Shown here: one piece after another, positions 4,916 through 27,814 of the stretch
Layout of the letters: each line of letters starts with the position of its first letter
Position numbering within the stretch: position 1 is the stretch's first letter
Assembly: GCA_017881905.1 (NCBI GenBank)
Contig: JADGQI010000063.1
Coordinates: forward strand, 1-47,578
Origin: Chloroflexota bacterium
GTDB lineage: Bacteria; Chloroflexota; Limnocylindria; Limnocylindrales; CSP1-4
Reading direction: 5' to 3'
Length of the DNA stretch: 47,578 bases
The notes under the pieces: model-generated
What the model was told of the DNA's origin: nothing
Databases searched by the model: none
Seen by the model: the letters and a program-made list of their open reading frames with translations, nothing else
Program-made: the position numbers and the translations under genes

Positions 4916-7900
4916 ATGCCTGACAAGCGCGGGTCCGGCAAGCACAAGCGATCGGCTCCGTCGGCGGCGACGAGCTCGACCAAGGACGCAGCCGCCCTTC
5001 GAGCGCGCATCGCCGAGCTCGAAGCGTTGGAGGCGGATCGCGAACGCGCGCTGAAGATCCAGGACGCGCTCTACCGGATCGCCGATGCCGCGAGCGGCGT
5101 CCATGACATGGCCGAGTTCTACCCGGCGATCCACCGGATCGTCGGCGAGCTCATGGACGCGGACAACTTCTACATCGCGCTCTACGACGACGAGCATCGG
5201 ACGATGGACTACCCGTACGCCGTCGATTCCGTCGACATGGACTTCCCGGCGCCCGGGTCATGGGAGGCGATCGGGACCGGCCAGGCACGTGGCACGACCG
5301 CGTATGTCCTCCGGACCGGTCGACCGGCGCACCTCACCGCCGAACGCTGGGAAGCGCTCATCGCGGAGGGAGAGATCGACCGGCTCGGCGCCCCGGCCGA
5401 GGACTGGCTCGGGGTCCCGCTCGTCGCCGAGGGCCAGCGGCTCGGCGTGCTCGTCGTCCAGACATATCAACCGGGCCAGCGCTATTCCGACGCCGACGTC
5501 GACCTGCTGGCATTCGTCGGCCAGCACGTCGCGACCGCGCTCAGCCGGGCACGGGCGATCGAGGAGACGCGCCAGCGCAACGCCGAGCTGGCGGTGATCA
5601 ACAGCGTCCAGGCCGGCCTTGCCGCCGAGCTCGACATGCAGGCGATGTACGACCTGGTCGGCGACAAGATCGCCGAGATCTTCGACACCCACGTCGTGGA
5701 CATCGCGATCTACGATCCCGACGTCGAGCTGCTGAGCTTCCCGTACGCGATCGAACGCGGCGTCCGGTCGTTCGACGACCCACGCCCACCGTGGGGCTTC
5801 CGGAAGCACGTCCTGAAGACCGGCGAGCCTCTGCTGATCGATGACCTGGGGCGTCAAGCGGCCGAGTACGGAGACCGGCTGACGCCGATGTCCGGGGAGC
5901 CGGCGAAGTCCATCGTCTTCGCCCCATTGGTCTCGAGTGGGAAGCCGATCGGGGTCGTCTCACTCCAGAACCTCGACCGCCAGCGGGCCTTCGATCGGGC
6001 TGACCTGGACCTGCTCGCGACCCTGACGACGAGCCTGAGCGTGGCGCTGGAAAACGTCCGTCTCCTCGACCAGACGCGTCAGCGCAACGCCGAGCTGGCG
6101 GTGATCAACAGCGTCCAGGCGGGCCTGGCAGCCGAGCTGGATATGCAGGCGATGTATGACCTCGTCGGCGACAAGATCGCCGAGATCTTCGACACGCATG
6201 TCGTGGACATCGCAACCTACGACCGGGAGGCGGACCTGCTCCACTTCCCGTACACGATCGAACGGGGTGTCCGGTTCCCGGACGAGCCGGTGGCCCCGTA
6301 CGGGTTCCGACGGCATGTCCTCGGGACCGCGGAGCCGCTCCTGATCGACGAGGTCGCGCGCCAGGCCGCCGAGTACGACAACCCCCTCACCCCGCTGGCG
6401 GGCGAGATGCCGAAGACCGCTGCCTTCGCACCCCTTATCTCCAGTGGCGTGCCGACCGGGATGATCTCGCTCCAGAACCTCGACCGGGAGCATGCCTTCG
6501 GACGGCCGGAACTGGAGCTGCTGAACACGCTGGCGGCCAGCCTGAGCGTCGCCCTCGAGAACGCCCGGCTCATCGATGAGACCCGTCGCCGTGCCGCGGA
6601 GCTCGCGATCGTCAACAGCGTCGGGCAGGCGCTTGCGTCACACCTCGATCTCGACGCGCTGATCGCGCAGCTCGGCGACCAGATGGTCTCTACGTTCGGA
6701 GCTGACCTGGTCTACGTGGCGCTCCACGACACGGAGACCGACCTCATCGAGTTCCCGTACTACTACGAGGGCAGGCAGACCGAGCCCCAGGCACCGCTGC
6801 CGTTCGGCAAGGGCCTGACGTCGAGGATCCTGCAGACCCGCGAACCGCTGCTCCTCAACCAGGCAGCCCAGTTCGAGGCGCTCGAGACCCGCGGGGTCGG
6901 CACCCAGGCGAGTTCGTACCTCGGTGTGCCGATCACCGTCGGCGACACGGCCATCGGCGTCATCAGCGTCCAGAGCCTCCACCACGTCGGCCGGTTCGGC
7001 GAGTCGGATACCCGCTTGCTGACGACGCTCGCCGCCAACGTGGGCGTCGCGATCCAGAACGCCCGCCTGTACCGGGACGCCCAGCGCCGGGTAAGCGAGA
7101 TGGCCGCCCTTGCCGAGGTGGGCGCCGAGATCTCCTCGATGCTCGAGCTCGGTCCGGTCCTCGAGCGGATCGGAGAACGGGCGAAGGCACTCCTGGCGGT
7201 CGACACGAGTGCGGTCTTCCTGGCGGATCCCGACGGGGTGACGTTCCGCCCGATCGTGGTCCTCGGCGAGAACTCCGAGGAGATCCGGAATGACACGGTT
7301 CAGCTCGGTGAAGGGATCATCGGCGACCTCGCCCGGCGGGCAGAGGCCGGAGTCGTCAATGACGTCCTGGCCGACCTGCGGTCCGTGCCGATCCCGGGAG
7401 TGAAGGGCCAGGACGAGGTCGAGGAGCGCCTCATGGCCGCTCCTTTGATCGCTCGAGGCACGGTCATCGGGATGACGGCAGTCTGGCGAGCGGTCCCCGG
7501 GGCATCGTTCAGCCAGGCCGACCTCGACTTTCTCGCCGGCCTGTCTCAGCAGGCGGCCATCGCCATCGAGAACGCCCGCCTGTTCGAAGAGGGTGCAGCG
7601 GCCCAGCAGGCGGCCGAGGACGCCAACCAGGCCAAGAGCACGTTCCTCGCGGCGATGAGCCACGAGATCCGGACGCCGATGAACGCGATCATCGGGATGA
7701 GCGGGCTCCTGCTCGACACGCCGCTCAGCGACGAGCAACGGGATTACGCCGAGACGATCACGACCTCGGGCGAGGCGTTGCTCACGATCATCAACGACAT
7801 CCTCGACTTCTCGAAGATCGAGGCCGGCAAGATCGACCTGGAGTCGTCGCCGTTCGCGCTCGGTGCGTGCATCGAGGGCGCGCTCGACATGATCGCCCCA

Positions 7901-10747: not shown

Positions 10748-11515
10748 ATGAGGCTCCAGGACAAGGTCGCGATCATCACCGGCGGTGGGAGCGGGATGGG
10801 GCGGACGGCCGCCCTGATCTTCGCCGGTCATGGGGCGAAAGTCGTCGTCGCCGAGTTCAGCGAAGCCGCCGGCCGCGAGACGGTGGATCTGGTCGAGGCC
10901 GCCGGCGGGACCGCTTCGTTCGTCCGGGCCGACGTCTCGAGCGAGGTCGACGCCAAGTCGATGGTCGACCACGCGATCTCGACCTACGGGCGGCTCGACG
11001 TCCTGTACAACAACGCCGGGATCATGCCCGAAGCGGACCACTCGGTGATCGACACGGACGTGGCCGTCTGGGACCAGGTCATGGCGGTCAACGTCCGCGG
11101 GATCTTCCTCGGCTGCAAGTACGCCATCCCGCACATGGCCGAGCAGGGCTCCGGGTCGATCATCAACATCGCCAGCTTCGTCGCCCTGGTCGGCTGCTCG
11201 GTCCCGCAGGATGCCTACACGGCCTCCAAGGGAGCCCTGCTGGCGCTGACCCGGAGCCTGGCCGTGCAGTTCGGGCCGAAGGGGATCCGGACCAACGCGA
11301 TCTGTCCGGGGCCGATCGAGACCCCGATGCTGATGGACTGGCTGCTCAAGGACGAGGCTGCCAAGCAGCTCCGCCTGGCGCGCAATCCCACCGGCCGGTT
11401 CGGCAAGCCCGAGGAGATCGTCAACATGGCCGTCTACCTCGCGTCGGACGAGTCGCGCTTCACCAACGGGGCGCAGCTCGTGGTCGACGGCGGCATCAGC
11501 GTCAACTACTTCTAG
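10748..11515 (+). CDS. Short-chain dehydrogenase/reductase
   Basis: TGGGSGMG, NNAGI, YTASKG and CPGPIETP motifs. Confidence 0.93.
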   Translation: MRLQDKVAIITGGGSGMGRTAALIFAGHGAKVVVAEFSEAAGRETVDLVEAAGGTASFVRADVSSEVDAKSMVDHAISTYGRLDVLYNNAGIMPEADHSVIDTDVAVWDQVMAVNVRGIFLGCKYAIPHMAEQGSGSIINIASFVALVGCSVPQDAYTASKGALLALTRSLAVQFGPKGIRTNAICPGPIETPMLMDWLLKDEAAKQLRLARNPTGRFGKPEEIVNMAVYLASDESRFTNGAQLVVDGGISVNYF

Positions 11516-11525
11516 GGCACGAAGC

Positions 11526-12359
11526 GTGACCGACTGCGCGATCGGCATCGACATCGGCGGGAGCGGGATCAAGGCCGGCGCCGTGGACCTGCGGACCGGC
11601 CAGCTCGTGGGCGAGCGGCTCCGGATGGCGACCCCCATGCCGTCGACCCCACAGGCGGTCGTTTCCGCGGCCAGGCGCCTCGTGGCCCGGATCGCTCGGG
11701 CCGTGCCGGAGGCCGCGGACCCGGCGACGGTCCCGGTCGGGATCGGGATCCCATCGGTCGTCGTCGATGGGATCACGAAGTCGGCCGCGAACATCGATCC
11801 GGGGTGGGTCGACTACGCCGCGACGTTCGAGTTCAGCCGGGCGCTCGCGCGGAATGTCGTCGTCGTCAACGATGCGGATGCGGCCGGCGTCGCCGAGATG
11901 CGATTCGGGGCGGGCGTCGGGCAGCTCGGTTCCGTGTTCATGCTCACGCTCGGCACGGGCCTCGGGTCCGCCCTGTTCTCGGACGGCAAGCTGGTCCCCA
12001 ACACCGAGCTCGGCCACATGGAGATCCGCGGCCGCGACGCCGAACGTCGCTCCGCATCGAGTGCACGGGTCCGGCGCGGCCTGTCGTGGAAGGCGTGGGC
12101 GGCGGATCTCGACGAGCACCTGATCGCGATCGACCGGCTGTTCAGCCCCCGGCTGTTCATCCTCGGCGGCGGGGTCAGCAAGAACCCCGAGAAGTTCGTG
12201 CCGTTCCTGACGGTCAAGGTCCCGATCGTCGCCGCGGAGCTCCGCAACGACGCGGGCATCGTCGGCGCCGCGATGTTCGCGGCCGAGCGAATGGATGCGG
12301 CGCAAGCGGCTCCACTCGAGCCGCCGGGCGCGGAGCGGGCTCCAGACCCGGCGACGTGA
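11526..12359 (+). CDS. ppgK: Polyphosphate/ATP glucokinase (ROK family)
   Basis: [50 protein letters not shown] and [11 protein letters not shown] motifs. Confidence 0.9.
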
Positions 12360-15486: not shown

Positions 15487-15499
15487 CCGCAGCGCCGTC

Positions 15500-15700
15500 T
15501 CGGTCGGCGGCCTCGTTCGCCGGCCACGTTCCGCGTCTCGTTCCCGGTCCCATCACACGGCCCCGTCACACGGCCCCATCACACATGGCCTCGTCCGCGT
15601 CTCGGTCCCCGGCGCGATCACACGGCCGCGTTCCGGCACGTTCCATGGCCTCGTTGCCTCGTCACCCGGCCTCGCTCCGCGGCCTCGTTCCCGTTCCCCG
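15500..15700. repeat. Degenerate short tandem repeats
   Basis: ccc[a/g]tcacacggc with 13-nt period at 15549-15584, another copy near 15617, and several ggcctcgt units. Confidence 0.6.
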
Positions 15701-15706
15701 GCGCCT

Positions 15707-15879
15707 TACAACGGGCATTCTTGGCCGGCGTCCGGGGAGGCGCCGGCGGGACCCGACCACGCGGTCCACGGGCTCGGATAGCACGACCATTCTTAGACGT
15801 GCCACTTCCCGACCATTCGCGACCGCGATACCGACCCGGACGAGCCGGATCGCGCCTTCGTAAGAATGTCCGTGCTATC
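15707..15879. repeat. Three-copy REP-like cluster (two direct copies, one inverted)
   Basis: tacaacgggcattctt (15707-15722), gatagcacgaccattctta (15777-15795) and inverted taagaatgtccgtgctatc (15861-15879; 17/19 complementary to the second copy). Confidence 0.7.
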
Positions 15880-23644: not shown

Positions 23645-25036
23645 ATGCCCGCCGGAACGTCACTCCCCGATCGGCCGCCGTTCGTCCTCCGGGCGAGGCT
23701 GCTCACCCCGTTGACCGGAGGCGGGACCGGATACCTCCGGGACGGCGCGCTCGCGGTCGACGCGACGGGTCGGATCGAAGCTGTCACCGACTGGGAGGCC
23801 TGGGCGCGCGCCGCGACGACGGCCGGTCGGCGGTCCGACGCCGAGGCGATGCTGTCGGCCGTCGTCGACCTGCGTCCGCTGGTGGTGCTCCCCGGCCTGG
23901 TCGACCTTCACGTCCACCTGCCGCAGCTGCCGAACGCCGGCGTGGGGGCCGGGCTCGATCTCCTGACCTGGCTCGGACGGTACATCTTCCCGCTCGAGGC
24001 CGAGTTCGACGCGGCGACCGCCGAGCGCGTCGCGCCCGCGGCCTTCCGGGCGATGGCCGCCGCCGGGACGACGACCGCGATGATGTACGGCGCCGTGTTC
24101 GAGCCGAGCCTGGACATCGCGTTCCGGGCGGCCGAGACGCACGGCATCCGGGCGATCATCGGCAAGGTCATGATGGACCGGCTGACCTACGACGACCGGC
24201 TGCCCGCCGATCGGATCCTCGAGCTCAGCCTGCGGCAGTCGGCCGACCTGTGCTCCCGCTGGAACGGTCGCGACGACGGCCGTCTCCAGTACGCCTTCAC
24301 CCCGCGGTTCGCCGTGTCGTGCACGGCAGACATGCTCCGGGAGTCGGCCGCGCTCGCGCGCCAGACCGGCGCGTATTGGCAGACGCACCTGTCCGAGGAC
24401 GTCCACGAGATCCGGGAGGTCGCCCGCCTGTTCCCAGACGCCGTCGACTACGTCGACGTGTATGACCGGGCCGGTGGCCTCGGTCCGCGGACCGTGCTCG
24501 CGCACGCCATCCACCTGTCGGACCGCGAGGTCGCGCGGATCGCCGAGACCGACACGGCCCTGGCGCATTGCCCGGCCTCGAACCTGTTCCTCGCCTCGGG
24601 AGCGATGCCGCTCGCCCGCTATCTGGCGGCCGGGATCCGGGTCGGTCTCGGGTCGGACGTCGCCGCCGGACCCGAGCTGTCGCTCTTCGCCAACATGCGT
24701 GCCGGGGCGTACGTCATGAACGGGCTCCGGGTGCTGGAGGGTGACGATGCCCCGGGCCCGCTCGTCCCGAGCGAGTGGCTCCGGATCGGAACGCTCGATG
24801 GGGCACGAGCCCTCGGGCTGGACGAGCGGATCGGCTCGCTCGAGGTCGGCAAGGAGGCGGACCTGATCGTCATCGATCCGAGGATGGTCGCGCCGATCCC
24901 CGGCATCGACTCGGACGATCCGGACGAGATCGTGTCGCGGCTCGCCTTCCGACCCCACCCGGCGATGGTCCGTGGGGCGTGGGTCCGCGGCCGGCGGCTC
25001 GACGGACCGCCGGGCACCGAGGCCCTCGACGGATGA
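23645..25036 (+). CDS. guaD: Guanine deaminase
   Basis: PGLVDLHVHLPQ, LLTWLGRYIFPLE, FTPRFAVSC, QTHLSE, LAHAIHL, HCPASNLFLASG and GLGSDVAAG motifs. Confidence 0.92.
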   Translation: MPAGTSLPDRPPFVLRARLLTPLTGGGTGYLRDGALAVDATGRIEAVTDWEAWARAATTAGRRSDAEAMLSAVVDLRPLVVLPGLVDLHVHLPQLPNAGVGAGLDLLTWLGRYIFPLEAEFDAATAERVAPAAFRAMAAAGTTTAMMYGAVFEPSLDIAFRAAETHGIRAIIGKVMMDRLTYDDRLPADRILELSLRQSADLCSRWNGRDDGRLQYAFTPRFAVSCTADMLRESAALARQTGAYWQTHLSEDVHEIREVARLFPDAVDYVDVYDRAGGLGPRTVLAHAIHLSDREVARIAETDTALAHCPASNLFLASGAMPLARYLAAGIRVGLGSDVAAGPELSLFANMRAGAYVMNGLRVLEGDDAPGPLVPSEWLRIGTLDGARALGLDERIGSLEVGKEADLIVIDPRMVAPIPGIDSDDPDEIVSRLAFRPHPAMVRGAWVRGRRLDGPPGTEALDG

Positions 25037-25106
25037 CGGCCGGTCTCGAGGCGGCTGACCGATGAGCGGGGGGTGCGTCTCATCGCGGCCGCCGAGATAC
25101 CCCCGA

Positions 25107-25760
25107 TCAGAGGATGACGATGCCGTTCGCTGCGGGCTGCCGCCCGTCACCGAGCGCCGCGAGGATCTCACGAGAATCCAATGGGTAGGTCCCGCGCAAC
25201 GCGTCCCTGCTGAGCGCGAGAGCGCGCCGGTTCGCCCGCGTATCGGCGATCAGGATCACGACCCGATCGACCCGTCCGTCTCGCTGCTTGCGATTGATCC
25301 GTCGCTCCAACGCCTGGACGTCCGCGATGCGCGTCTCGGCTTCGAGCGCCGTCTCGGACCCGACCGGCCCGATCACCACGTCCCAGGCACGCAGGTCGCC
25401 AGGGATCGGAAGGGGCACCTCAACGCGCCATGGGATCGTCGGCGGGAGGCGCCGCCGGAGTCGATCGAGGAGCGTCACCTGGGCCACATCCCGAACGGGA
25501 TCGCCCGACGGATACGCCCGAACGACCAGGTCCAACCCGACGGCGGCACACGTTCTGGCCAGGATCAGGATCGCGACGCCCGGAAGCTCGGCGCGTTCGA
25601 TCCGCCCGATGGTCGTGTGGGATACGCCCACGGCGCCGGCAACCGTGGCTTGGCTCAGCCCCGCACCCAGGCGCGCTCGACGGACCTCCTCGCCGACCGA
25701 GGCGAGCGCACTCCGCGCAAGTCGGGTACCTCGGTCTCGGGATCGCTCGCGGGTCGCCAC
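25107..25760 (-). CDS. XRE-type HTH fused to a PD-(D/E)XK/Vsr-like nuclease-fold domain
   Basis: RRARLGAGLSQATVAGAVGVSHTTIGRIER (HTH); WRVEVPL..RAWDVVI..LEAETRIADVQ (E..D..ExE pattern). Start uncertain (25760 or 25796). Confidence 0.75.
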   Translation of the reverse strand: MATRERSRDRGTRLARSALASVGEEVRRARLGAGLSQATVAGAVGVSHTTIGRIERAELPGVAILILARTCAAVGLDLVVRAYPSGDPVRDVAQVTLLDRLRRRLPPTIPWRVEVPLPIPGDLRAWDVVIGPVGSETALEAETRIADVQALERRINRKQRDGRVDRVVILIADTRANRRALALSRDALRGTYPLDSREILAALGDGRQPAANGIVIL

Positions 25761-25896
25761 CTCCGCAGATCTTCCCCGACCACGCTTATCCCGCACGTAT
25801 TTGGGCGGGATGCCGGGCGTCGGGCTCTAGGTCGACCTCCCGATCAGCCTGATCGAGGTGCAGTCGCCCGCCGCGGCTCGCACCGGTCTGATGACC

Positions 25897-26071
25897 TTGG
25901 TGCGTGGTGCGTTCAAACGAGCGATCAGCGACGCGTCGGGGGCCGGCCGGGTGTCGACCCCGAATTCGTCCCGCACCGATCCGACCGCCGACGGTCCCTG
26001 TTCGAGCGTGCCACGCACGGCGGCGGGTACTCCGACCGCCAGAGCCGCCTGTTGGAGCGTGCCACGCACCA
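25897..26071. repeat. Three-copy REP-like palindromic cluster (one inverted copy, two direct copies with 51-nt period)
   Basis: ggtgcgtggtgcgttcaaac (25899-25918) is inverted relative to gttcgagcgtgccacgcac (26000-26018) and gttggagcgtgccacgcacca (26051-26071); tccgaccgcc precedes both direct copies. Confidence 0.8.
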
Positions 26072-26116
26072 TCCAGGGTCCGAGATCACTGCATCGGCCG
26101 CTCTGAGCGCCGGCCG

Positions 26117-27814
26117 ATGACCGACCAACCGGTCGACCTGCTGATCGTCGGGGGCACGATCGTCGACGGGACTGGCGCGCCGGGGTTCCCCGGGACGGTC
26201 GCCGTGACCGGTGACACGATCCGCGTCCTGCGCGGGCCGGAAGCCGCTCCCGGCACCCGACCGACGTCGGTTGCAGGCACCGGGCCGGCCGCCGCTCCCG
26301 GCACCCCACCGACGTCGGCTGCCGGCGAACCCGGTGCACGTCCGCCCGCCTTGCGCACGATCGACGCGACCGGTCACGTCGTGGCGCCGGGGTTCATCGA
26401 CCTCCACAGCCACGGCGGGCTGGTGATCCTGGCCGAGCCGCGGCACGAGCCCAAGGTCCGCCAGGGCGTCACGACCGAGGTCATCGGCGTCGACGGCAAC
26501 GCCTACGCCCCGTTCCGGACCCAGCACGACCTCGACGACTTCCTGACCCTCAACGCAGGCCTCGACGGCCGCCCGGACCTCGCCTACGACTGGCGCACGG
26601 TCGCGGACTACCTCGCCCGGTACGACGGCAAGGTCGCGGTCAACATCGCCTACCTCGTCGGCAATTCGGCCCTGCGGATCGCGGCCGTCGGGTGGGACGA
26701 CGTCGAGCCGACGAGCGCCCAGATGGCCGACCAGCGCGCGCTCCTCCGCGAGGGGCTGGAGGACGGCGCCTTCGGCCTGTCGACGGGTCTCGACTACCCG
26801 CCCGGCGCCTACGCCACGACCCGCGAGTTGGCCGACCTGCTGGCCGAGGCCACCCGTCTCGGCGGCTTCTACCACACCCACGTCCGGTATCCGCTCGGCG
26901 ACGGGTTCCTCGACCCGTTCCGGGAAGCGATCGAGATCGGTCGGCGGGGCGGTGGACCCGTCCACATCACCCACTTCTACCATCGGGCCACCTTCCCGGG
27001 GTCCCCGGCGGACATGCTCGGACTCGTCGACGACGCCCGGGGCGAGGGCCTCGATGTGAGCTTCGACCTGTATCCGTACGAGTGGGCGAGCACCCGCCTG
27101 CTGATCATGCTTCCGCCGTGGATCCAGGCCGGCGGCGTGACCCGTCTCAGGGAACGGCTGGCGGATCGGGCGATCCGGGGGCGGATCCGGGAAGAGCTCG
27201 CCGCGCGCGGCCGCCTGTTCGCCGGGGTGGGAGCCTGGGCCGATCTTCGGCTCGGCCACTTCCGACGGCCGGACCATCTGCGCTGGGAGGGTCGCACGCT
27301 CGCCGACTACCTCGCCGAGACCGGTCAGGACCCGGTCGACGGGATCTGCGACCTCCTGCTTGCCGAGGATCTCGGCGTCAACCAGGTCTCACCGGGACCG
27401 CATCGCGCCGGGATCCCCCCGTTCCTCGTCCACGATCGGTCGATGATCGGGACCGACAGCGTGCTGATCGGGTCGATGCCGTCGCCACGGACCTACGGCT
27501 CGTTCCCGCGGATCCTGGGCGAGTTCGTCCGTGAGGAGCGGCTGCTGAGCCTCGAGGCGGCCGTCCGGAAGATGACCGGCGTTCCGGCAGCGCGGCTCGG
27601 GCTGACCGACCGCGGGCTCCTGCTCGACGGCCTCAAGGCCGACATCGTCGTGTTCGATCCGGCCGTCGTCCGGTCGCTCGCCACCTACGACGACCCTCGC
27701 CGCTATCCGGCCGGCATCCCCCACGTCATCGTCAACGGTCGGCTCGTCATCGACGGCGGCGAGCACACCGGCGCGCTGCCCGGTCGCGCGCTCCGACGTG
27801 GCCGATCGGTCTGA
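26117..27814 (+). CDS. N-acyl-D-amino-acid deacylase family amidohydrolase
   Basis: GGTIVDGTG, APGFIDLHSH, QGVTTEV, GLSTGLDYPPG, YHTHVR, PRTYGSFPR and ADIVVFDP motifs. Confidence 0.9.
   Translation: MTDQPVDLLIVGGTIVDGTGAPGFPGTVAVTGDTIRVLRGPEAAPGTRPTSVAGTGPAAAPGTPPTSAAGEPGARPPALRTIDATGHVVAPGFIDLHSHGGLVILAEPRHEPKVRQGVTTEVIGVDGNAYAPFRTQHDLDDFLTLNAGLDGRPDLAYDWRTVADYLARYDGKVAVNIAYLVGNSALRIAAVGWDDVEPTSAQMADQRALLREGLEDGAFGLSTGLDYPPGAYATTRELADLLAEATRLGGFYHTHVRYPLGDGFLDPFREAIEIGRRGGGPVHITHFYHRATFPGSPADMLGLVDDARGEGLDVSFDLYPYEWASTRLLIMLPPWIQAGGVTRLRERLADRAIRGRIREELAARGRLFAGVGAWADLRLGHFRRPDHLRWEGRTLADYLAETGQDPVDGICDLLLAEDLGVNQVSPGPHRAGIPPFLVHDRSMIGTDSVLIGSMPSPRTYGSFPRILGEFVREERLLSLEAAVRKMTGVPAARLGLTDRGLLLDGLKADIVVFDPAVVRSLATYDDPRRYPAGIPHVIVNGRLVIDGGEHTGALPGRALRRGRSV
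26233..26328 (+). repeat. In-frame 48-bp tandem duplication
   Basis: gccgctcccggcacccgaccgacgtcggttgcaggc vs gccgctcccggcaccccaccgacgtcggctgccggc; each copy contains the palindrome ccgacgtcgg. Confidence 0.8.

Follow-up and report, generated by a model that had tools for sequence, protein, structure and literature searches.

Dispersed intergenic minisatellites and mosaic repeats are familiar from mycobacteria (MIRU/VNTR) and from enterobacteria (BIMEs). For one kind of bacterial repeat, a protein partner has been described as well: in the passages of PMC3337134 that deal with the matter, a RAYT gene is present in a single copy, has its REPINs on its flanks, and is specific to its type. Here, we consider a locus that might be thought to belong in such company: a gene for a protein that joins a helix–turn–helix (HTH) domain of the XRE type to a nuclease-like domain (hereafter, the HTH-nuclease gene), together with a cluster of inverted and direct repeats upstream of it. 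Both lie in a contig of 47,578 nt from a Chloroflexota bacterium (JADGQI010000063.1), and it is this whole stretch that we call the window.

A first-pass annotation of the window had proposed that gene and repeats make up an undescribed selfish or REP-associated element, run by a PD-(D/E)XK protein that acts on hairpins of single-stranded DNA or on a structured RNA. The reading that we have come to favor, with a probability of roughly 45%, is a different one: the protein would be a lineage-specific DNA-binding protein, and the upstream repeats would be its operators, to which it binds as a dimer. We establish here the fold of the protein and the conservation of its residues, the synteny of the gene and the purifying selection on it, and the architecture, local conservation, and dispersal of the element; from these, we infer binding, regulation, and a role for the acidic site (cleavage, nicking, or metal-dependent binding only).

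The Element at Its Own Locus

The repeats are present as they had been described, one inverted and two direct copies with a 51-nt period. The direct copies (25980–26018 and 26031–26069) are 82% identical at that spacing, and the inverted copy (25898–25923) is 77% complementary to 26046–26071. Taken together, they form two outward-facing arms that share a 19-nt core, GTTCGAGCG-N5-CGCAC: the proximal arm is oriented toward the HTH-nuclease gene, and the distal arm, duplicated at the 51-nt phase, is oriented toward the gene for a D-aminoacylase-like amidohydrolase (Table 1), whose ATG (26117) begins 47 nt beyond the end of the second core.

What can be said about conservation depends on the genomes at hand. 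The window's own genome (G000) is 78% complete and fragmented into 172 contigs, and such assemblies often lose repeats; the relatives are represented by one genome per species, with genes called by a simple rule based on GC3 (the G+C content of third codon positions). Among orthologous loci, the spacer that separates the HTH-nuclease gene from the D-aminoacylase gene can be as short as 121 nt or as long as 789 nt, and the core, written as GTTCG(A/T/G)GCG-N5-CGCAC, is present in all five of the closest (the window, G006, G017, G005, and G008). The number of copies differs from species to species: G006 has one inverted copy and five direct copies at exact 51-nt steps (vs. two direct units in the window; in both, the last core stops about 47 nt short of the D-aminoacylase ATG), in G008 a single inverted copy is accompanied by three direct ones, in G017 there is just one copy in either orientation, and in G005 an inverted-plus-direct pair is present twice through a 196-nt duplication.

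In an alignment of the spacers of three species, conservation is essentially confined to the two arms and to the gene-start side, where a short island (25761–25830) conserved among the orthologous spacers holds the sole A/T-rich stretch. The orthologous HTH-nuclease genes are separated by a synonymous divergence (dS) of 1.1–1.6, and the rest of the spacer can barely be aligned. Across the 3.2 Mb of G017, the relaxed pattern GTTSGAGC-N6-CGCAC is matched only twice (the reversed-pattern control, three times), and the two matches make up the inverted pair upstream of the orthologue, at distances of 103 and 253 nt. A core that is kept through saturating divergence, that is the only one in G017, and whose half-sites are conserved fits a selected protein-binding site, and the HTH protein next door is the natural candidate to bind it.

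The same facts speak against the idea that the adjacency is incidental, the repeats having built up in long, weakly constrained spacers that hold low-GC3 genes while the protein does some other job that has nothing to do with them; a core kept at one locus across a dS above 1, and kept there as the sole copy in G017, counts against it. We regard this idea as unlikely, and it is not without attractions. The HTH-nuclease gene does have a GC3 of 0.78, compared with 0.91 and 0.89 for its neighbors (the excess of A/T-ending codons that the first-pass annotation had remarked on), spacers beside genes of its family are longer than others (median of 379 vs. 198 nt), and several unrelated repeat families inhabit these genomes. 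One such family is GATGCGRCTCGSCGCATCG, the commonest dispersed palindrome of the window's own genome, with 28 copies (at most two mismatches) on 11 contigs.

Dispersal in Related Genomes

Strict matches to the core number 15 in G005, 13 in G008, 9 in G006, 4 in G015, and 3 in G010, whereas the reversed-pattern control gives 0–1 in four of these genomes and 2 in G015; ten other genomes of the genus have 0–1 strict cores. In some congeners, the same element type is found at 5–10 further intergenic sites, where the extra copies are grouped in clusters of two to eight cores with a fixed architecture. Minus-oriented copies all come before plus-oriented ones in 15 of the 17 loci that have both, same-strand neighbors are 50–53 nt apart in 15 of 25 pairs, and the inner spacing of the inverted arms is 141–143 nt in six of the 17 loci and 99–100 nt in four. 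The central 5 nt vary freely, the centers of the arms are often noncomplementary, and the interiors of the elements fall into subfamilies. Such arm centers are a better fit to a bipartite protein site than to a hairpin of RNA or DNA.

The window's own genome is poorer: the relaxed pattern has seven matches there at three places (two in the window, four on contig C104, and a singleton), the four on C104 being two inverted-pair elements of roughly 200 nt. The palindromic cluster of the first-pass annotation is, then, a real structured element that belongs to a dispersed family, although one that is dispersed in the congeners and rare at home. As a side observation, the C104 elements (C104:10195–10425 and 11275–11540, at about 2195–2425 and 3275–3540 of L122) closely resemble each other; they have a central hairpin, CATCCCG...CGGGATG, and after each of them comes the GATGCG palindrome; the pair flanks a small minus-strand open reading frame (ORF). 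G006:C2 carries two inverted pairs of the C104 core variants about 1.1 kb apart, possibly at the orthologous locus.

Where do the dispersed copies sit? Of 12 sites that could be classified (by hand, from crude gene calls and Pfam names), 8 lie between divergent ORFs, 3 between co-oriented ones, and 1 between convergent ones. None of the element sites other than the locus itself adjoins a gene of the HTH-nuclease family, which suits incidental adjacency. Orthologous intergenic sites are occupied in several species (between gcvT and an amine oxidase gene, between arsC and a DUF5612 gene, and upstream of rpsB), so most of the dispersed copies are old.

Dispersal also brings us to the proposal closest to that of the first-pass annotation, a system like that of RAYTs and REPINs with no HUH enzyme, in which the HTH-tethered nuclease would nick or cut the inverted-arm element and thereby drive its 51-nt duplication and its occasional spread, the gene itself staying single-copy and vertical and each paralogue serving a repeat family of its own. 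An element of inverted arms does flank the gene, with the inner spacings just given in 10 of 17 loci, and is dispersed in congeners, much as RAYTs are single-copy, flanked by repeats, and specific to type. Against this stand copy numbers that reach tens at most (and seven, by the relaxed pattern, in the window's own genome), the age of the copies at orthologous sites, and the bias toward divergent promoter regions, which is the opposite of the usual placement of REP sequences. Operators would account for that bias, and for the retention of a sole copy in G017, no less well than a REP-type system would, and we think the nuclease-driven proposal unlikely.

A Restriction-Enzyme Fold Joined to an XRE Domain

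The first-pass annotation saw an XRE HTH fused to an E..D..ExE nuclease-like domain, and this holds up. The HTH (amino acids 35–93) is matched by Pfam HTH_31 with 35.4 bits (cutoff of 27) and by HTH_3 with 27.5 bits (cutoff of 23). AlphaFold models the whole protein with a pLDDT of 89.9 and amino acids 97–229 with a pLDDT of 92.1 and a pTM of 0.86; the core of this C-terminal domain (C-domain) is a-bbb-a-b (H8-20, E27-32, E41-46, E53-58, H64-78, E82-87). A VIA structure search of 48,161 chains, independent of Foldseek, gave the C-domain neighbors that are almost all PD-(D/E)XK proteins (nearly all 50 rows are nuclease folds): the XisH-like 2okf (Z 8.8, root-mean-square deviation of 3.2 over 103 aligned residues), AF1548 (1y88; Z 8.4), and NucS (2vld; Z 8.0), with Card1, Can2, Bax1, Vsr, Hjc, and several restriction enzymes also in the list. 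Foldseek likewise returned a nuclease fold, its top rows being OkrAI (E 0.017) and BamHI (E 0.084). Such scores, obtained for a predicted model, assign the C-domain to the PD-(D/E)XK superfamily and to no single family within it.

Sequence comparison adds little to this picture. A profile search of the PDB found no relative of the C-domain among solved chains (the best row, at E 0.21, is an unrelated enzyme); Pfam, NCBIfam, PADLOC, and PHROGs match the HTH only and hold no model for the C-domain; and the ESM Atlas matches are unnamed clusters only, mostly from Chloroflexota. The statement that no HUH motif is present here agrees with these searches, in which Pfam and NCBIfam see the HTH alone, and with the fold of the C-domain.

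Conservation was scored over 31 sequences, orthologues as well as paralogues, with identities as low as 28%. Three positions never vary (D103, D139, and E154), and five more are conserved in at least 90% (E126, E152, R136, Q161, and K170). The canonical motif of the superfamily has a D on strand 2 and (D/E)xK on strand 3, whereas the third motif here is ExE-T-R and lacks the lysine. BamHI has the same ExE form in its third motif, and the E..D..ExE set is, in this respect, BamHI-like. Conservation of catalytic-type acidic residues is also what one would hope to see if the nuclease acted on the repeats.

A homodimer is predicted to form through the HTH region (residues 19–41 and 72–99), with an ipSAE of 0.77 vs. 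0.00 for the best of three controls. That mark is attained by 20 of 30 solved homodimers and by 1 of 23 single chains; the runs had 65% or more of their contacts in common, the pLDDT of the partner was at least 80, and a custom alignment served as input. The pass may mirror a likeness to known structures because XRE dimers have already been solved. A homodimer, if formed, fits the dyad in the core.

Could this be a domesticated or orphan restriction-type module instead, an HTH like that of a controller (C) protein joined to a domain like that of BamHI or OkrAI and employed in defense, in addiction, or as a rare cutter, with the repeats irrelevant to it? In the VIA search, the best structural neighbors of the HTH include XRE regulators and the controller proteins of restriction–modification systems (Z 10–10.6; C.BclI at 10.3 and C.AhdI at 10.1), PADLOC gives weak matches to "control protein" and capH (E 0.0025–0.012), the Foldseek rows and the ExE motif point the same way, and the paralogues of other genomes have housekeeping genes with no common theme on either side. 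We nonetheless judge this very unlikely. The immediate neighbors are two amidohydrolase genes, with no methyltransferase or other defense gene adjacent; the structural scores are weak and common to many nuclease families; and the history of the gene, to which we now turn, is that of a stable resident.

A Vertically Inherited Gene

The minus-strand frame is, as had been noted, alone between two plus-strand genes in a co-oriented run. Its start is probably the GTG at 25760 because family members open with MATRER and are typically 217 amino acids long. The order guaD, antisense HTH-nuclease gene, D-aminoacylase gene is kept in 9 of the 11 best loci of relatives, one other genus included, the two exceptions being a 1.9-kb contig and a paralogue that is located elsewhere. 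The ratio of nonsynonymous to synonymous divergence (dN/dS) comes to 0.24 when the gene is compared with that of the closest relative and to 0.15–0.22 with three others (0.14–0.15 for the neighboring genes), which indicates purifying selection and, with the synteny, vertical inheritance.

The gene is single-copy in its own genome, where the only other match is an HTH-only gene on contig C86. Of the 301 Chloroflexota genomes sampled, 29 were matched by a C-domain profile (14 of 15 in family f1, 14 of 15 in family f3, and none elsewhere), so that the domain was found in two families of one Chloroflexota class only, with 1–11 copies per genome; the names of the source organisms of the homologues indicate Candidatus Limnocylindrales. 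Searches with tblastn found no match in plasmid and phage collections and none that could be confirmed in IMG/VR. The suggestion that the gene is a recent or mobile insertion must, therefore, be given up: it is single-copy, syntenic across the genus and into another, and constrained, and it was not found on plasmids, phages, or viral contigs. The stable vertical position, the 1–11 paralogues per genome, and the negative outcome of the searches for mobile relatives also argue against a restriction-type module. Literature searches turned up no paper that describes the family or its repeats, and in PMC13212565, a paper on Limnocylindria, tandem repeats, XRE proteins, and nucleases go unmentioned in the passages that match these terms.

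Two observations may be recorded beside these. In G015 (C7:136421–137091), the orthologue is broken, with one TGA and one TAG inside the match and three pieces in all, and a copy of the core remains beside it at 136200. On C86 (6367–7000, which is L123 1868–2500), a short XRE-only gene (6543–6734, minus strand) is followed downstream by three copies of GATGCGRCTCGSCGCATCG at 59-nt steps and preceded by two or more inverted copies.

Paralogues and Their Arrays

Paralogues in the relatives sit between housekeeping genes as unrelated as tyrS/fusA, typA, rpoD, recO, and Nramp. In the twenty 20-kb windows taken from genus g1, the sequence no more than 800 nt away from a family gene amounts to 8% of the total and takes in 20 of the 28 tandem arrays (period of 15 or more, TRF score of 100 or more); after normalization by noncoding length, 19 of 24 lie in the near-gene zone vs. 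20% expected, a figure to be read with the fact that the loci used for the test are those that had suggested the enrichment. Across 400 kb of G006 sequence, 3 of 12 arrays stand beside the two family genes. In an independent set of 24 genes (family f3 plus G322), the association is missing: 1 of 10 arrays is near a family gene, and none of the four intergenic arrays is adjacent to one.

The individual arrays tell a similarly divided story. An array of TTGGTTCG-N5-CGAACCAA, with a 72-nt period and a palindromic core, lies 79 nt upstream of the paralogue at the TypA site, and the same pattern occurs at 50 sites in G003 (for example, C10:324520–324756, C7:236788–237094, and C8:163236–163619) and at 11 in G002, with none in G005 and G006, for which no TypA-site paralogue is listed (the control gave 0). 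For a third paralogue, G010:C4, arrays of one family stand on either side of the gene, and the family recurs at no fewer than four other loci. Of the six gene-adjacent arrays tested, three in all belong to dispersed families, and the other three are local only; the dyad of the 19-nt core is found near paralogues at background level only.

These arrays count in favor of a nuclease that drives its own repeats, and the wider analogy with REP systems is supported in part: the fold, the dispersed element, and the arrays of the paralogues are there, but the motif is rare, its copies are mostly away from family genes, half of the tested arrays are local, and the enrichment fails to reappear in f3 and G322. 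For incidental adjacency, too, they cut both ways. The missing association in f3 is what it would predict; the persistence of the g1 enrichment after normalization for noncoding length and the two further paralogues that adjoin dispersed families of their own are not. A more general conjecture would have a class-specific family of HTH-tethered restriction-fold proteins in which each paralogue recognizes a phased inverted-arm minisatellite of its own, seeds or amplifies it near its gene and in divergent promoter regions, and in this way also wires a lineage-specific regulon, a PD-(D/E)XK counterpart, without HUH, of the partnership of RAYTs and REPINs; we hold this to be unlikely.

On a separate point, one paralogue, L025 (G023:C9:1033214–1038873, at 1097–2395), lies directly downstream of a gene for a Mutator-family transposase (Transposase_mut, E 7.6e-124), and among the 20 paralogues examined, it is the only one with a transposase for a neighbor.

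Proposed Operators for a Neighboring Regulator

How, then, would a regulator with operators work? As we picture it, the XRE HTH dimer would carry two restriction-endonuclease-like domains, and each arm would offer it a partly dyad-symmetric core, G(A/T)GCG-N5-CGCAC, with GTTC in front. The 51-nt phase would set the duplicated sites of the distal arm about five helical turns apart, and we read the 72-nt spacing, like the 51-nt one, as an integral number of turns. The protein would occupy the arms, perhaps bridging them, and when bound, it would control its own promoter, that of the D-aminoacylase gene, or both. In some congeners, the element would have grown in number and come to occupy further promoter regions, most of them divergent, and a small, regulon-like repeat family would be the outcome.

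Several facts weigh against this reading, and they should be set out together. The putative operators lie 100–300 nt from the start codon of the gene, which is far for simple autorepression. Tandem growth to five units (in G006) is unusual for an operator, as is spread to loci flanked by housekeeping genes that have nothing in common (gcvT, rpsB, DAHP synthase, and arsC). The near-invariance of E126, D139, E152, and E154 across paralogues with 28% identity is something that a pure regulator leaves unexplained. Five more distant orthologues at the same site (L015–L019) lack the motif, and a search of their spacers for a covarying operator found no 10-mer common to at least three of the five. 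G010 has the element family, yet its orthologue is of the other clade. On the favorable side, the recognition-helix residue that follows SH is T in the five motif-bearing orthologues (S in G008) and A or V in the five that lack the motif, a split that is suggestive only because the two groups are two clades. Presence of the motif and type of orthologue are, in fact, confounded by phylogeny throughout, and this limits every argument from co-occurrence.

If the protein does bind the cores, it represents an uncharacterized family, a restriction-enzyme fold with an XRE domain that is confined to one Chloroflexota class, and the element becomes a bacterial example of regulatory sites that spread on repeats, multiplied and moved between promoters. 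If, instead, the nuclease site acts on the repeats, the system would amount to a second and mechanistically unrelated solution to the relationship between RAYTs and REPINs, and it would explain the species-specific families of phased intergenic minisatellites in these genomes. If neither is true, what is left is still a new PD-(D/E)XK family, one without a profile in Pfam, NCBIfam, PADLOC, or PHROGs, and a catalogue of new repeat families that is useful for typing these uncultured lineages.

Other Features and Rejected Candidates

Scans of the locus for sigma-70 promoters and for intrinsic terminators each returned 0 sites. The remaining features are collected in Table 1.

Table 1. Coordinates of genes, domains, and repeat units at the locus (numbered from the first nucleotide of the window)
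Feature	Position	Strand	Basis or detail
guaD-like amidohydrolase gene	23645–25036	+	neighbor of HTH-nuclease gene
Spacer between convergent guaD and HTH-nuclease gene ends	25037–25106	.	imperfect long hairpin (interleaved dyads)
XRE-HTH/PD-(D/E)XK-fold gene, 217 aa	25107–25760 (stop included)	-	ORF list, family consensus, dN/dS
Open frame of HTH-nuclease gene, reaching GTG at 25796	25107–25796	-	229 aa
PD-(D/E)XK (restriction-endonuclease-like) domain, aa 100–229	25110–25499	-	predicted structure, structural neighbors, residue conservation
XRE-type HTH, aa 35–93 of the 229-aa frame	25518–25694	-	Pfam HTH_31; recognition helix SHTTIGRIER
Leader and putative promoter of HTH-nuclease gene	25761–25830	-	gene-proximal conserved columns in spacer alignment
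Left (gene-proximal) arm, 19-nt core GTTTGAACG-CACCA-CGCAC	25900–25918	-	conserved island, also seen in the spacers of G017 and G008
Right-arm unit 1, 51 nt	25980–26030	+	core GTTCGAGCG-TGCCA-CGCAC at 26000–26018
Right-arm unit 2, 51 nt	26031–26081	+	core GTTGGAGCG-TGCCA-CGCAC at 26051–26069
D-aminoacylase-like amidohydrolase gene	26117–27814	+	ATG at 26117

The two interleaved dyads downstream of the gene had been counted with the repeats. They are there, but their folds (−40.4 and −35.2 kcal/mol) do not stand out from those of shuffled sequences (z of −1.2 and −0.9), no copy of the motif is found among them, and they are probably separate from the element; the spacer that holds them has no terminator-like run of T. 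The pair tgcagt/actgca (25859 and 26088), proposed to close a larger fold-back, is likewise present and at chance level, a shuffled spacer giving 33 ± 8 inverted pairs of 6-mers. It is also true that the inverted copy differs from the first direct copy by four changes, all of them transitions; the argument from G-U pairing that was built on this is unsupported: with only four changes, the all-transition pattern is uninformative.

A structured RNA was considered and set aside. Single-sequence folds have z scores of −2.1 and −2.05, owing largely to the inverted arms themselves, and the centers of the sister elements are noncomplementary. Rfam 15 has no relevant match at E ≤ 1 in 24500–26700 and none at gathering score in the whole window, and it has none in the elements of L122, L102, L103, and L110. 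We also rejected a small minus-strand ORF (25827–26072) that would encode 17-amino acid repeats: we judge it noncoding, given its G+C content by codon position (0.70/0.60/0.81), the loss of its frame in G006 (where tblastn finds pieces in different frames), and array periods across loci that have no bias toward multiples of three.

The stretch 15707–15879, offered as an orphan relative of the element, contains no copy of the motif, even with two mismatches allowed. The spacer there (15499–15693 and 15865–15879, after the end of a gene) is dense with tandem repeats of 13 and 23 nt, and its 15-mer AATGTCCGTGCTATC (at 15865), which is unrelated to the 19-nt core, turns up again elsewhere in this genome, without mismatch within a 72-nt array on contig C27 and with one mismatch on C11 and C154. 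Finally, a 48-nt tandem duplication in the N-terminal part of the D-aminoacylase-like gene (26233–26326; 2.0 copies, 89% match) encodes a repeated 16-amino acid stretch that is rich in Pro, Ala, Gly, and Thr.

Comparison with Known Systems

The likeness to RAYTs and REPINs is a real one. A single-copy, vertically inherited gene (one full-length copy in its own genome) stands beside an element made of two inverted short repeats, which lies upstream of it in all five close loci and whose type is dispersed in intergenic DNA, and different paralogues adjoin different repeat families. The protein, however, has no HUH/Y1 domain and has an XRE HTH and a PD-(D/E)XK fold in its place; the copies number 2–50 rather than hundreds and include tandem units at a fixed phase of 51 or 72 nt; the arms lie 99–143 nt apart with noncomplementary centers; and the sites favor divergent promoters. 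Inverted doublets are found in 15 of 17 loci, and the fold of the element (z of −2.1) goes with centers that often cannot pair. As for movement of the repeats, the differences seen between species are in unit number only (two in the window, five in G006). We do not count the system as a member of the RAYT/REPIN group because the enzyme that defines that group is absent.

With the PD-(D/E)XK nucleases (2okf, 1y88, 2vld, Card1/Can2, and BamHI/OkrAI), the protein shares the a-bbb-a-b core over 93–110 residues at Z 7.5–8.8 and the acidic residues on strands 1–3; it differs from them in an identity of 7–13% and in the missing lysine of the third motif.

The C proteins (C.AhdI, C.BclI, and C.Esp1396I) resemble it in the fold of the HTH (Z 10.1–10.3), in the dimer that is predicted for it, and in repeated, partly palindromic sites upstream of the gene in a divergent spacer. 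Here, in contrast, the HTH and the nuclease fold are parts of one protein instead of products of adjacent genes, the immediate neighbors are both amidohydrolases with no methyltransferase among them, and the sites lie 100–300 nt upstream, are tandemly amplified, and have been dispersed to other loci in congeners.

The MIRU/VNTR loci and the BIMEs, in turn, share with the element units of about 50–70 nt that occur in tandem at many intergenic loci and vary in copy number between relatives. What sets the element apart from them is the fixed, inverted two-arm architecture of its clusters, the conserved 19-nt core, and the place of one cluster beside an HTH-nuclease gene of the matching clade (an other-clade orthologue in G010).

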